Shown here: in pieces, positions 2,645-10,140 of the stretch
Layout of the letters: each line of letters starts with the position of its first letter
Numbering within the stretch: the stretch's first letter is position 1
NCBI GenBank assembly: GCA_045805065.1
Contig: JBJMMA010000172.1
Location: 1-20,530, forward strand
Source: Bdellovibrionia bacterium
Lineage (GTDB): Bacteria > Bdellovibrionota > UBA1018
Direction of reading: 5' to 3'
Length of the DNA stretch: 20,530 nt
Position numbers and translations under genes: made by a program
The notes under the pieces: generated by a model
What the model was told of the DNA's origin: nothing
The model's database searches: none
Seen by the model: only the letters and a program-made list of their open reading frames with translations

Positions 2645-4987
2645 CTATTTTACGCAGGCAAAGAACGCCAGATCATTACCAATTTCCAGCAAGCCATATC
2701 CGCTGACATAGCCACTTGCCCTACAGCGTCTGTGGATCGCAGCCTTACACACATCTTGGGCCGCGGTCGTGGCGTCGCAATAAGGCATGTAATCCTTCAG
2801 ATGAGTAAAGCTATCGGAGACCAGGTCTGCTTGTAGAGGCTTCACGCAGCCTACAGCCGTGGAATCGCCGGAAAACTCGAGGGGGCCATACCCTCCTGAG
2901 GCAAAACCCTGAATCGAGCAGAAACGATTGATCGCGGAACCACAGGCAACACTCAAAGGGTCCATTGGGTCACAAAGGGGTTGAGTCTTCCTCATTGCCG
3001 TAAAAGTTGTCGCAATAATGCTTGCTTGCGCAGATGGAAGACAGGTGACAATCGCGACATCTCCTGCGTGCTCAACCGGGCCAAAGCCTCCGGCTCCGTA
3101 GCCTTGAGTTACGCAGAAACGATTAATAGCGGCGTTGCACGTCGCACTGAGAGCCGCTGAGCCATCGCATCCTGGCACAAATGTCTTGAGGACCGAGTAA
3201 GAGGTATTAAATACAGCGGCAGCATTCACAGACGCGGAAGGTAACTTTGCGCCATTCATGACCGCATTCCCCCAGCCTTGAAGCTCAGAAGGAGATGGAG
3301 CGCGTCCCAGGCTCTGTATTAAAACACTGCGGAATCTTGCTTGCCCTTCTGGACTCAAGATGAAGGCAGCTCTCATTTGCCGCAAATTATGCCCATCGCT
3401 CAGAAAGCTCTGCCAGCCGGCAATTTCAGACGATGAAGCAACCCGTCCGAGAATGGTTTGATAGGTCGCACTGATCAGTGAAGCCGCTTCGGCGCTCTTT
3501 GCGATAGAAACCCAAGCCTTACTGACCGACATTCCTTTACTGATTGCAGTACTGAAAGAGGAGAGCCCAGAGCTATCGACGGGCCGCCCCAGTAGCTCCT
3601 GATACATCTGACTGACCACCTGAGCGGCCAGCGCAGGGTGAAGATACTCGCTGGAGTTTGCGATGCAGCCCTTCCAATCCACATGCTGATATGATGATGC
3701 CCCGACGCCGTCACCCGAAAAGTCGACGATCGAATTCGGGCTCACGTCATAAGACTCCGTTCCGCGGAAGCCACATCCACCTGTGTTTGTTCCGCCTCCA
3801 GCGTTTTGGACACTGTTGTTTCGCACTCGAATCGAGGCTGTCGTATGATCGATGATTAATCCTTCTTGGGCGTTGCTCACGACATTATCGTGATAATCGC
3901 CACCGCCATAATACTTGGCCTGGTACCAAGGATCCGCGCCCAGCATCATTCCAAAGCCGCAGCCACGAGCGGCTCCGCAGTCGATCTGATTTCCCGAGAT
4001 GTCACTTCCTGCATAATCACCGCTGGTTGCTCCATTGGGCCACGCATGAGTCATGAAGGCTGCAAAGCTTCCGTAGCGGTAATGCGTCGAGTGCTTGATG
4101 ACGTTGTTCTGGATCACGCAGTTTTTGCATCCACCGAAAATGAAATCCACGTCAGAGTTTGAGATAAAGATATTTCCGATGAACTTTGAATTCGAAGCAT
4201 CACCTACCGTCAATCCGTCCGACCAGACGCCGCGATGATCGCCGTTCTCCACAAAAGCGCTATTTTGCACGGTGAGGCGATCGCCACTCGGTCCCATTCC
4301 GGTGCCGCAAATCGCGTGCTTTGAGACGCTATTGATAAAAGAAAAACCTGCGCCCGAGGATACGGCGTTGTATCCCGGGGTATTATCTTTAGAGCAATTC
4401 TGAGCAATTGCCGCTCCGGTCGACGTCCCGATGCGCGCCTCACGGTTTCCGTCCAATACAATATGATCAATCGTTACGTTGGGCTGAGTGTTGTTCATCA
4501 GACCGAACTGAACATTGAGGTTTGGATCGGCAATGAGAACCGCGCAATCCAGGCCAAGCTCATAGTCACAGATTTTCGAATCCGTTCGCCCCTGAGTCCG
4601 AAGCGTGATGGAGCGATCGAAAGTAATCTGATTCGCAATCGTATAGAGTCCGGCAGGCAATTCCAGAATTCCACCTGCGGGAGTCTGGTGAATGCAGGCT
4701 AAGATCACGTCAGCGGCGTTTCTTCCGGTTCCACCATAGGCAGCAAGTTCGTTGCAGGTGAAAAGTCCTGCGCCGCTCGGCGAGCTCGCGGCAGTCACTG
4801 TTCCCGAATTTCCCGAAGTGCCTGAGTTGCCTGCGGCGGAGGCCGCGGATTGATCGGCCTGGACTGAGCCTACCGAGATGGATGAGCTTGTAAAGCGCGC
4901 GCTCTTTGTTGAAGTGCACCCTACCGCCACTGCGGTGATCAGGCAGAGATTTAAAGTTCTGAGCACGTTATTTGAAAACCTTTTCAT
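2645..4987 (-). CDS. Putative lipoprotein: right-handed beta-helix (pectate-lyase-like) domain, DUF4214/S-layer-like helical repeats, and a C-terminal triple Cys-rich repeat
   Basis: The N-terminus MKRFSNNVLRTLNLCLITAVAVGC is lipobox-like and is followed by a Ser/Gly/Ala linker. The beta-helix signature includes GGILELPAGLYTI and NVTIDHIVLDGNR, with Asn/Ile ladders. Helical repeats read MYQELLGRPVDSSGL, TYQTILGRVASSSEIAGW and LIQSLGRAPSPSELQGW. Confidence 0.8.
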   Translation of the reverse strand: MKRFSNNVLRTLNLCLITAVAVGCTSTKSARFTSSSISVGSVQADQSAASAAGNSGTSGNSGTVTAASSPSGAGLFTCNELAAYGGTGRNAADVILACIHQTPAGGILELPAGLYTIANQITFDRSITLRTQGRTDSKICDYELGLDCAVLIADPNLNVQFGLMNNTQPNVTIDHIVLDGNREARIGTSTGAAIAQNCSKDNTPGYNAVSSGAGFSFINSVSKHAICGTGMGPSGDRLTVQNSAFVENGDHRGVWSDGLTVGDASNSKFIGNIFISNSDVDFIFGGCKNCVIQNNVIKHSTHYRYGSFAAFMTHAWPNGATSGDYAGSDISGNQIDCGAARGCGFGMMLGADPWYQAKYYGGGDYHDNVVSNAQEGLIIDHTTASIRVRNNSVQNAGGGTNTGGCGFRGTESYDVSPNSIVDFSGDGVGASSYQHVDWKGCIANSSEYLHPALAAQVVSQMYQELLGRPVDSSGLSSFSTAISKGMSVSKAWVSIAKSAEAASLISATYQTILGRVASSSEIAGWQSFLSDGHNLRQMRAAFILSPEGQARFRSVLIQSLGRAPSPSELQGWGNAVMNGAKLPSASVNAAAVFNTSYSVLKTFVPGCDGSAALSATCNAAINRFCVTQGYGAGGFGPVEHAGDVAIVTCLPSAQASIIATTFTAMRKTQPLCDPMDPLSVACGSAINRFCSIQGFASGGYGPLEFSGDSTAVGCVKPLQADLVSDSFTHLKDYMPYCDATTAAQDVCKAAIHRRCRASGYVSGYGLLEIGNDLAFFACVK
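2648..3211 (-). repeat. Three 65-aa coding repeats, each with four Cys (PxC-x9-CxxAIxRxC-xxxG[YF]xxG...E...C)
   Basis: Equivalent residues start at nt 3211, 3016 and 2821, an exact 195-nt period. Core motifs are CNAAINRFC, CGSAINRFC and CKAAIHRRC. Confidence 0.9.
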
Positions 4988-5212: not shown

Positions 5213-7141
5213 TCAAAGCTTCCTGACTTCGCCGCTCTCGGAGATCTCAAGAGTCACGTTTTCAAGAACGGGCACTCCCTTAACGTGAGGCACGAGATTT
5301 GGGTGCCTCTTGAGATATGCCGAAAGATCAAAACCGCCCGTACCTTTGTTGTGAATCCGAACATCACCGCGAAGAATCACGCCCGTCAGCATCACCTGTC
5401 CGTCCACATTCAGGCTTTTGAGATCAAGAAGACTGGTTCCCTGAAACGAGTGCGTCACGTGCTGCACATCGGCGTAGTACTTGTCCTCAGTCAGTCGATC
5501 CTTGAGTGACACGGCCGGGAGAGAGCCTGGGCGCTGATGCGACAATCGCATGCTTTTCGGATCGAGCTTGAAGAGATCGCTATGAAACTGCATGAAGTAA
5601 TCAAAAGCGGATTTGATCGGAGAGAAGAACTCGGTTCGGGCATCTTTCTCCACGTTGATGAAATGAACCAATGGCTCTTTGTAATGCTGGCGCCAATAGC
5701 GATCCAGATTCAGAAGGCTTGAGCCCATCGCACCCTCAAGCTGCAGGTATTTTCGAACGACGCCGTCAGGATCCTTCTGCTTTTTCACGTTGGAAATGAG
5801 ATCGGGCGCCACGATTTTCATGAACTCATGCTCGCCGATTTCACTGACAAGTTTTTTGATTTTGGGCGTCAGCACGTCATAATTGAAGAGCGCCATATTG
5901 GTATTGAAGAAAGCGACTTGATCGCCGCGGCGGACATCGAGACCCAGCTTTTCAAAGAGTGCCTGCTGTCCCGCCTCTTTGGCCTGCGCCTGCTCAATGA
6001 TTGTGGCATACGTGGAGCCGTCAGAACGTTTGACGAGCGCGATTTGTCCGCCCTTCAAGTCGTTCATGGTCTTTTCGGTCGTGACCATTGCGATCGGGAC
6101 CTGCTTCTTGATCATCCATCCAACCATCGCAGCATCGGGCGTGCTGCTCAGATCCTCGCCATTTCCCACGGCTGAAACCAGCGACTTGCCGGTCTTGGGA
6201 CGCATTTCATCGCGATAAGCCGCGCGAAGTGCATCGACTCCAAAGTATCCGTGTCCACCTGGAGCCTGACGCCCGAAGCTGAACTTGCCCGCCTCATCGA
6301 TCGTAGGCATATAAGATTGAAAACTGCTTCGAGATGATCTTTGAACAATCTTGAGGTCTTTCAAGACCTGCTCGTAAGTTTTGGTCGGATCAATCAGCGA
6401 TTTCTTGCTCCAGAGGTTCGCGATCGATTCCTCGGTCTCAGGACCGATCAAGTCGTGGAGCACAACTCCGCTGAACTTTCCGCTTTGCGCATCATGAATG
6501 GCTTGAAGGATCTGGGCTTCGGCCAGTGACACTGAGACCGTCTTGGATGGAGCGCGTGGATCCGGAACATCCACGTACAAATCGGTCCCTTTCGCGCCAA
6601 TGCGAACTTCCTTGGGATCGATTTTCTTGATGCGTCCAAGATAGGTCTGGCGAGTCAGTGAGGAGCCCGTACCTGCCTGCATTTTTTTGATCCAAACAAC
6701 GGAAGAGCTGGCTGCGTCCGTGTATTCCTTGCTGCTTTTGAGTGATCCGTACTGAACATAAGGGATTTGCGACAACAACTCAGCAGGGGCGATCGCAGTC
6801 GGGTAAGCGGTCAATTTCCCTTCGGCTGATTTGCCTGCCTCAAAGATCTGAAGTTCCTCTTTATGCCCGGCCAGTTTCTTTTCATAAAGCGAAAGAAAGT
6901 AAGATAGGTTCTGCTCATCGAACTTCAAAAGCTCTCGAAGCTTTTGGCGTGCTTGAGCATTACCGGGATTTGCAACGAGTTCAGTGACAAGCTCATTCAC
7001 CGCAGCTTCTTTGGAGGCGACCGAAGCCAGACTATGGGCTTCGAATTGGTGCACTACACAGTCTTTGAAACTCGCACTCGCGGATGTGCTGAATAGAAGA
7101 ATGAAAACAGCAAAAAGAGACAATCTTCCTGAAAGTTTCAC
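5213..7141 (-). CDS. UTP--glucose-1-phosphate uridylyltransferase of the eukaryote-type UDPGP family, with a predicted Sec signal peptide
   Basis: Motifs match eukaryotic UGPase in order: KKMQAGTGSSL (cf. KLNGGLGTSM), GAKG, APGGHG (cf. PPGHG), NGEDL (cf. NxDNL), KGG, IEQAQ (cf. LEIAQ), FNTN, QLEGAMG (cf. QLETAMG) and FSPIK (cf. FLPVK). The C-terminus resembles a left-handed beta-helix (SLNVDGQVMLTGVILRGDVRI). The start is placed at GTG 7141 because GAGGGG lies 5 nt upstream. The N-terminus then reads MKLSGRLSLFAVFILLFSTSASA. Confidence 0.85.
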   Translation of the reverse strand: MKLSGRLSLFAVFILLFSTSASASFKDCVVHQFEAHSLASVASKEAAVNELVTELVANPGNAQARQKLRELLKFDEQNLSYFLSLYEKKLAGHKEELQIFEAGKSAEGKLTAYPTAIAPAELLSQIPYVQYGSLKSSKEYTDAASSSVVWIKKMQAGTGSSLTRQTYLGRIKKIDPKEVRIGAKGTDLYVDVPDPRAPSKTVSVSLAEAQILQAIHDAQSGKFSGVVLHDLIGPETEESIANLWSKKSLIDPTKTYEQVLKDLKIVQRSSRSSFQSYMPTIDEAGKFSFGRQAPGGHGYFGVDALRAAYRDEMRPKTGKSLVSAVGNGEDLSSTPDAAMVGWMIKKQVPIAMVTTEKTMNDLKGGQIALVKRSDGSTYATIIEQAQAKEAGQQALFEKLGLDVRRGDQVAFFNTNMALFNYDVLTPKIKKLVSEIGEHEFMKIVAPDLISNVKKQKDPDGVVRKYLQLEGAMGSSLLNLDRYWRQHYKEPLVHFINVEKDARTEFFSPIKSAFDYFMQFHSDLFKLDPKSMRLSHQRPGSLPAVSLKDRLTEDKYYADVQHVTHSFQGTSLLDLKSLNVDGQVMLTGVILRGDVRIHNKGTGGFDLSAYLKRHPNLVPHVKGVPVLENVTLEISESGEVRKL

Positions 7142-7315
7142 GCGTTCCCCTCGCGGCCAGATCAATCCATTGATCTCAACGTACCTATTCAGTGTAGCAA
7201 CGATTGTCCTTTTAGTGAAATCGTCCTCTGTGGCTCGATCACTCGTTCCAACTTAATCACTTTATTTTAATTCAGACCTAAATTGAGTCGGCGAAAGTCC
7301 CTAAATTTTTTCGCT

Positions 7316-7346
7316 TAAATATTCCGATCAGTCATCCGATCAATCA
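7316..7346 (+). promoter_or_regulatory. Possible sigma-28 (FliA)-type promoter overlapping a 12-bp tandem repeat
   Basis: TAAA (7316-7319), then 15 nt, then TCCGATCA (7335-7342), versus the consensus TAAA-N15-GCCGATAA. TCCGATCAGTCA and TCCGATCAATCA lie in tandem at 7323-7346. Confidence 0.4.
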
Positions 7347-7350
7347 ATAG

Positions 7351-10140: not shown

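Follow-up and report, generated by a model that had tools for sequence, protein, structure and literature searches.

A lone terminal cysteine as a portable module of predicted exported enzymes in a Bdellovibrio-like soil bacterium

The mitochondrial intermembrane-space sorting and targeting signals (MISS/ITS) that dock on Mia40 consist, in the available text of the source, of an amphipathic helix, nine residues long, that may precede or follow a docking cysteine, with the hydrophobic residues on the cysteine side; these signals are portable and drive membrane passage via a mixed disulfide (PMC2806287). A preprint by Haft, as far as its available sections go, pairs four cysteine-containing C-terminal sorting signals with Rce1-like proteases and proposes lipidation of the cysteine (bioRxiv 10.1101/2023.06.07.544157). 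The SitA toxins of Myxococcus, according to the accessible portions of two papers, are exported by Sec, lipidated at an N-terminal cysteine, passed on by outer membrane exchange, and act in the cytoplasm of the recipient (PMC5562445, PMC8546572). The way in which Bdellovibrio-like predators move proteins from their periplasm into prey has been little explored. Protein secretion in Bdellovibrio bacteriovorus is called largely unexplored in the accessible part of a 2025 toolbox paper (PMC12622784). Here, a candidate tag of this general kind is described from a 20.5-kb window, which is the whole of contig C172 (GenBank JBJMMA010000172.1) in the 4.22-Mb genome of a Bdellovibrio-like soil bacterium (262 contigs, 94% complete). 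Two divergent genes of this window, A and B, lie on either side of a 209-bp spacer and encode predicted exported proteins with one cysteine each. The feature that they share appears to be a so far undescribed form of short terminal sorting or anchoring tag on an invariant cysteine; the literature covered, including a review (PMC13689555) and with subscription journals and supplementary tables outside its coverage, contains no description of it.

The preliminary description of this locus had proposed that A and B, two unrelated enzymes with Sec-like signal peptides, carry a common, position-independent tag of the form C-V-x-x-Q-[FL]. The single cysteines were confirmed in both proteins, just past the predicted signal peptide in A (SASA/SFKD-CVVHQF) and at residue 919, near the C-terminus, in B (QIS-CVSQQLHQALK-stop). 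The signal peptides are canonical in appearance, each with a basic n-region followed by a hydrophobic core free of charge and a site of the A-x-A type (...STSASA|SFKD in A); as with all signal peptides in this work, they were called by eye and with a custom hydrophobicity heuristic that is permissive (1416 of 3671 open reading frames (ORFs) called). The hexapeptide itself did not hold up as a conserved unit, its Q being variable and the flank of A lacking the character of the B tail. Moreover, random pairs of cysteine contexts from this proteome agree at three or more of the five following positions in 0.8% of draws, so that the literal match between A and B is, on its own, weak and post-hoc evidence. 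The idea of a portable, position-independent tag, by comparison, gained support from matches to a family-trained matrix at the C-terminus and past the signal peptide of unrelated proteins. It is strongly supported that the single cysteine is part of a portable terminal module, situated ~5-16 residues past the signal peptide or ~10 before the C-terminus, and equally so that an amphipathic helix after the cysteine, C-[VIL]-x3-L-x3-[LF]-[KRH], is the form which the module takes in this genus. The module would accordingly have two layers: a broad one, a lone cysteine near a free end of an exported and otherwise cysteine-free protein, and a lineage-specific one, the helix motif. A falls within the broad layer, without a clear fit to the helix motif; B is typical of both.

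Among described signals, MISS/ITS offers the closest likeness: there, as here, a cysteine is accompanied by a short amphipathic helix (~10 residues in the present case), and here the pair occurs at one or the other end of cargo proteins that are unrelated. A helix beside the cysteine is seen in B and in the matrix-positive set and is not seen in A (hydrophobic moment, muH, 0.13 vs 0.53 for B). The MISS/ITS system is eukaryotic and organellar, so that the analogy is one of mechanism without homology, and its substrates are small and later acquire internal disulfides, whereas the present cargo is large and otherwise free of cysteine; no counterpart of the Mia40 receptor came to light here, although no search was aimed at one. 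A second likeness is with signals of the MYXO-CTERM type, where, in the available text, an invariant cysteine also lies in a short C-terminal signal, many signal-peptide proteins per genome carry it, and many cargo proteins are served by one machinery (bioRxiv 10.1101/2023.06.07.544157). Unlike those signals, the tail described here has no transmembrane helix and no Arg-rich end, exists in an N-terminal version, and is borne by cytoplasm-type enzymes rather than surface proteins; furthermore, the NCBIfam sorting-signal models gave no match to six C-terminal tails at E up to 10. The CaaX box likewise places a cysteine near the protein end with aliphatic residues after it, but the cysteine here is typically the 11th residue from the end and not the 4th, and Sec signal peptides are present. 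SitA differs in having a canonical lipobox, whereas the cysteine here lies outside any lipobox and has a C-terminal version. A lipobox takes the form [LVI][ASTVI][GAS]-C directly past the hydrophobic core; in the N-terminal class, the residues at -3 to -1 are, for example, RSS, YAN, TTR, or FAQ after the A-x-A site, and neither A nor B fits the pattern, in agreement with what had first been noted. The C-terminal domain of type IX secretion (T9SS), a folded beta-sandwich of ~80-100 residues, was considered and rejected, given that B ends in helical repeats, a linker, and one 14-residue helix.

The B family provides the clearest view of the C-terminal form. Its conserved tail reads [small]-C-[VIL]-x3-L-x3-[LF]-[KRH]-COOH with, as a rule, a single K, R, or H at its end. 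Among the 120 listed homologues of B, 112 have a cysteine within the last 20 residues, followed by 10 residues in 50 of the 112 (the mode), by 8-12 in 83, by three in a single case, and by 17 at most; in alignment A1, conservation of C919 exceeds 90%. The genome of this bacterium contains 27 B-related ORFs, 20 of them strong (E <1e-200), and the tail is present in 17 of the 18 strong ones with a complete C-terminus. Homologue sources are named as Bdellovibrionales, Oligoflexia, and Bacteriovoracaceae metagenome-assembled genomes, while the head domain of B has a patchy distribution with local expansions (it was found in 7 of 41 relatives and, in a phylum-wide sample of 301 genomes, in 19). In one region (G000:C247:26861-39213), five tagged genes, namely four B paralogues and one for an unrelated 697-aa protein, run head to tail on one strand, with some stops and starts overlapping.

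Portability was assessed with a matrix of positions +1 to +9, trained on B-family tails alone and scored on every cysteine of ~3,650 other likely genes. At 7 bits or more, it found 7 of 465 cysteines in the last 20 residues of signal-peptide proteins against 8 of 11032 elsewhere (odds ratio (OR) 21, p 8e-7) and 4 of 500 in the zone 4-30 residues past the signal-peptide core (OR 11, p 1.3e-3). At C-termini of proteins without a signal peptide the count was 1 of 464, and that one protein has a signal peptide by eye. A hidden Markov model (HMM) of the tail, at 8 bits or more, gave 23 C-terminal matches, six of them outside the family, and none internally in ten times more sequence; its best internal matches sit directly past signal peptides. 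The proteome-wide enrichment that had been anticipated was consequently found in part, with the family-derived motif at the C-terminus and after the signal peptide but not with a loose pattern at the C-terminus. The number of tagged proteins in the genome is estimated at ~45-60, the upper range resting on inspection by eye.

Retention of the cysteine, which had been expected of a functional tag, is not confined to B: it holds for 12 of 12 signal-peptide-bearing homologues of A and for two further cargo families. The first of these, L022, has its lone cysteine just past the signal peptide (of 27 homologues, five are N-terminally truncated and three are exceptions), and the second, a group of exported RelA/SpoT-toxin-like proteins, retains one in the same place. 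In both families, the cysteine is kept across many metagenomes, and the flank resembles the genus motif in close relatives only. Similarly, the kinase orthologue of a sister genome retains the lone-Cys tail. In G036, from another family of the order, the B-type proteins L033-L037 have a basic C-A-[RK]-x-L-[RK] tail in which the cysteine stays.

Three further properties, none of which was used for selecting the tagged proteins, set them apart. The first is depletion of other cysteines, which are 4-11 times fewer than expected: 13 vs 141 expected in family B, 8 vs 45 in the non-family C-terminal cases (P 1e-11), and 7 vs 24.7 in the non-family N-terminal cases (P 3e-5). The second is the nature of the cargo. 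A Pfam match was obtained for 22 of 49 non-family candidates, a fraction to be taken as indicative only, mostly to families needing ATP, nucleoside triphosphates (NTPs), or other cytoplasmic substrates, and a few of the proteins are ordinary secreted-type hydrolases. The domains include four Pkinase, two NIF (phosphatases), two DnaJ, a 1594-aa triple-AAA protein, and a galactokinase, together with cp-ATP-grasp (circularly permuted), PLD, Peptidase_C26, GNAT, RelA_SpoT, Macro, mTERF, and methyltransferase domains. For the RelA/SpoT-type cargo, the matches are to domains at the C-terminus of very long proteins, polymorphic-toxin-like in appearance, and polymorphic toxins are typically antibacterial. 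As for the two founding proteins, the early view that their substrates are of a cytoplasmic kind (NTP/NAD+) holds at the fold level for B, given its nucleotidyltransferase-like and ADP-ribosyltransferase-like folds, and is matched in A by a UDPGP domain. The galactokinase (L013; G000:C143:20542-21909) has a signal peptide and a C-terminal lone-Cys tail, and together with the UDP-glucose pyrophosphorylase (UGPase)-like A it would make two Leloir-pathway-type enzymes predicted to be exported by one organism. Another tagged protein, L060 (G000:C202:8226-10526), is 766 aa long and combines a strong mTERF match (143 bits) with an N-terminus like a signal peptide and a tail of the lone-Cys type; mTERF proteins are mostly known from organelles.

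The third property is the promoter. In B. bacteriovorus, the FliA attack-phase consensus TTAAG-N16-CCGATA is reported, in the available text, for 92 of 140 attack-phase promoters (PMC3627812). A k-mer scan upstream of the tagged genes yielded CCGATAAG, 11-17 nt before the start codon. The core CCGAT[AC], 9-20 nt before the start, precedes 11 of 33 tagged genes vs 63 of 3633 others (OR 28, p 1.4e-11), the proportion being 6 of 16 when the non-family tagged genes are taken alone, and the full T[TA]AA-N16-18-CCGAT[AC] precedes 8 of 33 vs 21 of 3633. Several of the "background" genes with a CCGAT[AC] site proved to encode further tagged proteins. A different form of the sigma-28 site, TAAA-N13-17-CCGATAA, was tried and found before none of 63 tagged genes, the spacing and last base of the Bdellovibrio consensus being needed. 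The predicted promoter of B has two mismatches to TTAAG-N16-CCGATA and ends 9 nt before the ATG, without a Shine-Dalgarno sequence, from which it follows that the mRNA leader would be very short or absent. The sequencing runs listed for this genome were soil-metagenome DNA runs with shares of 0.30 or less, and none was of RNA. No FliA-type site was found upstream of gene A. Elsewhere in the genome, a sigma-28-type -10 box (CCGATAAG) ends ~5-9 nt before the ATG or GTG of ~19 tagged genes, again without a Shine-Dalgarno sequence, and attack-phase-type tagged genes may, therefore, be expressed from leaderless or near-leaderless mRNAs. The likeness to the FliA attack-phase regulon of B. bacteriovorus thus lies in the type of site, which precedes B as well as a third of the tagged genes, and the difference in the distance of the -10 box from the start codon; in the literature examined, no link of that regulon to a protein tag is reported. 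Taken as a whole, domain content, FliA-type promoters, and Bdellovibrionales homologue sources support the initial suggestion of a tag carried by cytoplasm-type enzymes that a predator exports. On this sequence evidence, the tagged set looks like a pre-made effector arsenal of a Bdellovibrio-like predator, and the tag may mark proteins that are delivered into prey.

Gene A illustrates the broad layer and how readily it can be overlooked. By its profile match (61.8 bits against a cut-off of 22 for PF01704), A is a divergent UGPase-type protein, and it distantly resembles eukaryote-type UGPases (PDB 3gue_A, E 2.5e-6); a paralogue in the same genome has neither a signal peptide nor a cysteine. 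The ORF is open to TTG 7165 (5213..7165 on the minus strand, 650 aa), giving 642 aa from GTG 7141, and a GAGGGGAA site lies 5 nt upstream of that GTG. The database call (P0122, 613 aa) begins at GTG 7054, which has no GAGGGGAA-type site, and so loses both the signal peptide and the cysteine. Orthologues at 77% and 70% identity retain the upstream signal peptide and the cysteine, and on account of these and of the GAGGGGAA site the 642-aa form is preferred; the call from GTG 7054 is probably too short. Gene callers can begin genes after the signal peptide and cysteine, as happened with P0122, and comparable mis-calls could conceal such proteins in annotations. Between the hydrophobic core and the cysteine of A lie 10 residues that include K and D (LLFSTSASASFKD-C). 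Most of the 119 listed homologues have no signal peptide, and the non-exported members contain 0.5% cysteine. The heuristic flagged 16 as signal-peptide-bearing, of which five were false by eye, and one real case had been missed, leaving 12; all 12 have a cysteine 5-16 residues past the hydrophobic core, in local sequences that are very different from each other. Such retention despite differing surroundings argues that the cysteine of A is no accident.

Several observations weigh against a module common to all of these proteins. The flank of A scores -6 bits on the B-tail matrix (rank 2531 of 13468) and is not amphipathic, and the flanks of the signal-peptide-bearing A homologues are background-like, scoring -1.4 to -18 where the null median is -10.6. 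The flank also varies by lineage: G036 has C-A-[RK]-x-L-[RK], and the distant relatives of L022 have V-Y-C-P-L-L. Eight of the 120 listed B homologues have no tail, at least two of these being cut by contig ends, and the sole clear galactokinase match in five related genomes (G011, 41% identity, N-terminally cut) also has none. A loose regular expression, C-phi-x3-phi-x3-phi, is not enriched at C-termini (15 of 929 vs 231 of 11032) and was abandoned for the family-trained matrix, and a motif-free count of lone cysteines in the last 20 residues of signal-peptide proteins gives 16 vs 11.8 expected. The lenient-threshold census of 50 proteins holds visible noise, the candidates came from the matrix, the regular expression, and our own inspection and were partly picked by eye, and the signal-peptide calls come from the permissive heuristic. 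Finally, no partner was identified: the neighbours of 63 tagged genes share generic families alone, and over 41 relatives the DsbA-type and Thioredoxin_4 genes do not follow the distribution of the B family. The genus does possess three extra small DsbA-like genes with a CP[FY]C motif (G000:C5:22193-22750, C46:809-1375, and C46:23857-24507), but these copies have no signal peptide, and the two conserved envelope forms are present in all relatives.

Of the explanations considered, the best as a whole, to which a tentative preference may be given, is that a terminal lone-Cys module marks a set of exported effectors, with thiol docking as its presumed mechanism. The near-absence of other cysteines implies a role for the thiol itself in the oxidising periplasm, and position independence combined with a fixed order of cysteine then helix suits side-chain chemistry plus helix docking. 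By analogy with MISS/ITS docking on Mia40 and with the reducible tether of AB toxins, a relay can be proposed in which, in the oxidising periplasm, the helix would dock into a partner and the lone cysteine form a reversible mixed disulfide; the partner would hold the cargo and hand it over to a second step, either outer-membrane export or delivery, and the cargo would be freed by reduction in the target cytoplasm. A fuller scheme is conceivable but doubtful: in Bdellovibrio-like predators, the lone-Cys helix would serve as address label for a new, thiol-driven second delivery step, a bacterial counterpart of the Mia40 relay, in which attack-phase effectors exported by Sec are captured by a dedicated receptor, carried across the outer membrane of the predator into prey, and released there by reduction in the cytoplasm. 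The genome, at 94% completeness, gave no match to VipB of the type VI secretion (T6SS) sheath or VirB4 of type IV secretion (T4SS), and this absence fits a Sec-first route. With respect to the target, the logic of the promoters, like the RelA/SpoT domain with its resemblance to polymorphic toxins, speaks for bacterial prey, although some of the cargo domains look eukaryote-like.

A lipid anchor is an unlikely alternative, in which the cysteine would be lipidated and the C-terminal tail cut by a CPBP/Rce1-like intramembrane protease, a route put forward for MYXO-CTERM-type signals and CaaX boxes, so that the cargo would reside on membranes or vesicles and be delivered by fusion in a SitA-like manner. 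The invariant cysteine near the C-terminus, followed by a short and often basic tail, would suit such processing, as would the pairing of cysteine signals with Rce1-like proteases in the available text of Haft's preprint (bioRxiv 10.1101/2023.06.07.544157) and the precedent, in the accessible parts of the SitA papers, of Sec-exported and Cys-lipidated toxins. The genome even contains a sole PF02517 (Rce1-like) gene (G000:C247:19689-20537) ~6 kb from the five-tagged-gene run. However, housekeeping genes lie in between, PF02517 is present in 37 of 41 relatives irrespective of family B, and it is unlinked to the B genes in G001 and G036. The tail, moreover, is amphipathic, with at most 17 residues past the cysteine and with no transmembrane segment or Arg cluster; it finds no NCBIfam sorting-signal match even at E to 10, and the N-terminal variant could not be processed likewise and has no lipobox.

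It is rather improbable that the preferred marking of effectors can be replaced by a disulfide-stapled dimer, in which enzymes of cytoplasmic origin, once recruited for export, lose their internal cysteines, and the terminal Cys helix zips two copies together and so stabilises them, with no sorting role. Such a staple explains cysteine depletion, position independence, and the i, i+4, i+8 leucine pattern, and many of the cargo enzyme types are oligomers, yet the helix has only ~3 turns, members of the N-terminal class show little conservation of the flanks, and both the export of ATP- and NTP-dependent enzymes and the common attack-phase promoters are left unexplained. A model of two copies of B residues 878-929 scored 0.02, which is evidence neither way.

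More improbable still is a tag that acts after delivery only, as a membrane-targeting helix whose cysteine is S-acylated or otherwise used in the target cell, possibly a eukaryotic host, much as with the terminal cysteine lipidation motifs on effectors that intracellular pathogens inject. A basic amphipathic helix beside the cysteine at either protein end, eukaryote-like cargo (Pkinase, NIF, DnaJ, mTERF, and the eukaryote-type UGPase), and precomputed RasGEF or ankyrin matches in some B homologues of other metagenomes all lend it some appeal. In the genome itself, searches gave no RasGEF or F-box-like match, although these are weak tests in that the controls matched nowhere, and only three Ank_2 matches. 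Against a eukaryotic destination, the RelA/SpoT-type cargo matches domains of polymorphic-toxin-like long proteins, FliA-type attack-phase promoters fit the logic of a predator of bacteria, and the cysteine is not at the CaaX position. Lastly, it is very improbable that there is no common function, the B tail being peculiar to its family and the UGPase cysteine and the remaining matches coincidental, since the post-hoc nature of the A/B match (chance probability ~0.8%), the poor matrix score of A, and the loose pattern without C-terminal enrichment are opposed by signal-peptide dependence (7 of 465 vs 1 of 464), cysteine depletion, promoter enrichment in non-family tagged genes, and a cysteine kept in three unrelated cargo families.

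A short tag that picks out a co-regulated, exported, and cysteine-free set of kinases, ATPases, nucleotidyl- and ADP-ribosyl-transferases, and toxin domains would yield, from sequence alone, a catalogue of candidate predatory effectors. It would open the question of delivery to direct testing via cysteine and helix mutants and supply a small, portable engineering module. If the fuller thiol-driven scheme is true, the tag would define the predatory effector repertoire and be a handle for sending chosen cargo into prey; a new principle of delivery might then be involved.

The coordinates of the features of A and B are collected in Table 1. B is a member of a large paralogous family and has no Pfam or NCBIfam match (NCBIfam searched with the whole protein to E 0.01), and its domains were assigned from an AlphaFold model with a predicted local distance difference test (pLDDT) score of 89.5 and from a separate model of residues 40-480 (pLDDT 92); residues 19-38 have a pLDDT below 50. 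A Foldseek search with the whole protein returned only helical-repeat look-alikes, transportins among them, and became informative once the head domain was folded alone. The head domain then matched 1vfg_A in Foldseek (E 7e-5) and, in VIA, 4wby_A (Z 11.7, root-mean-square deviation 3.6, 205 aligned) and 3h37_A (Z 11.3). Class II nucleotidyltransferases have a Pol-beta-type head with a G-[GS] and a D-x-D motif, and in B residues G82, G83, D123, and D125 (D123 x D125) are invariant in 65 sequences; at the fold level only, B would belong to this class, which comprises the CCA-adding enzyme and poly(A) polymerase. The next domain resembles diphtheria toxin (7k7b_A, Z 6.0) and PARPs and Tpt1 (Z 5-5.5) in VIA, where a Z below 8 may reflect merely a common arrangement. 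ADP-ribosyltransferases of the H-Y-E type combine their fold with a His, Tyr, Glu triad; H368, Y408, and E459 of B are invariant in the same number of sequences (65) and may correspond to such a triad, the fold match at Z 5-6 being suggestive only. The repeat region resembles designed ankyrin-type repeat proteins (E 6e-8). It is followed by a 9-residue linker, with pLDDT below 50 at residues 914-918, and by the tail helix, which is modelled at low confidence (pLDDT ~55-61) and has a mean hydrophobicity of -0.05.

Table 1. Positions of genes A and B and of their predicted features in the window
Feature	Position	Strand	Basis or detail
Gene A, UGPase-like, predicted exported	5213..7141	-	642 aa from GTG 7141
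Signal-peptide-like segment of A, VKLSGRLSLFAVFILLFSTSASA, predicted A-S-A cleavage site	7073..7141	-	heuristic and eye
Sole Cys of A and next 10 residues (CVVHQFEAHSL), post-signal-peptide lone Cys	7028..7060	-	Cys codon 7060-7058
UDPGP (PF01704) match of A	5387..6310	-	profile positions 139-406 of 413
Predicted FliA/sigma-28-like promoter of B: TTAAA (7315-7319), N16, CCGATC (7336-7341)	7315..7341	+	sequence
Gene B, 929 aa, member of large paralogous exported family	7351..10140	+	ORF and homologues
Signal-peptide-like segment of B, residues 1-30 (...PHTFA|SD)	7351..7440	+	heuristic and eye
Putative nucleotidyltransferase domain, CCA-adding-enzyme head and neck type, ~residues 50-340	7498..8370	+	model
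ADP-ribosyltransferase-like domain, ~residues 350-470	8398..8760	+	model
Helical repeat region, 'HPEW' repeats, residues 484-905 (~420 residues)	8800..10065	+	model
C-terminal tag of B: linker, then helix 915-928 with C919 and CVSQQLHQALK	10093..10137	+	model; muH 0.53; Cys codon 10105-10107

The neighbours of A and B encode a histidine kinase, a Cys-rich lipoprotein-like protein, RpoD, DnaG, a DNA glycosylase, and a mevalonate-pathway cluster. The Cys-rich protein (780 aa; 2645-4987, minus strand) adjoins the histidine kinase and has 26 cysteines, in sharp contrast to the otherwise Cys-free A and B, together with a lipobox-like N-terminus (…AVGC), a DUF4214 domain, and a weak beta-helix match. 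On the other side, a strong hairpin (10161-10194) lies between the end of gene B and the gene for the RpoD homologue (10218-12155, minus strand), a protein of 645 aa that has a long Ser/Lys-rich N-terminal extension and a single cysteine. Finally, the mevalonate cluster contains a gene for a 663-aa protein in which diphosphomevalonate decarboxylase domains are fused to a GHMP-kinase domain (15635-17626, minus strand) and also holds genes for HMG-CoA reductase and, at the contig end, a protein of the FMN-dependent dehydrogenase type.

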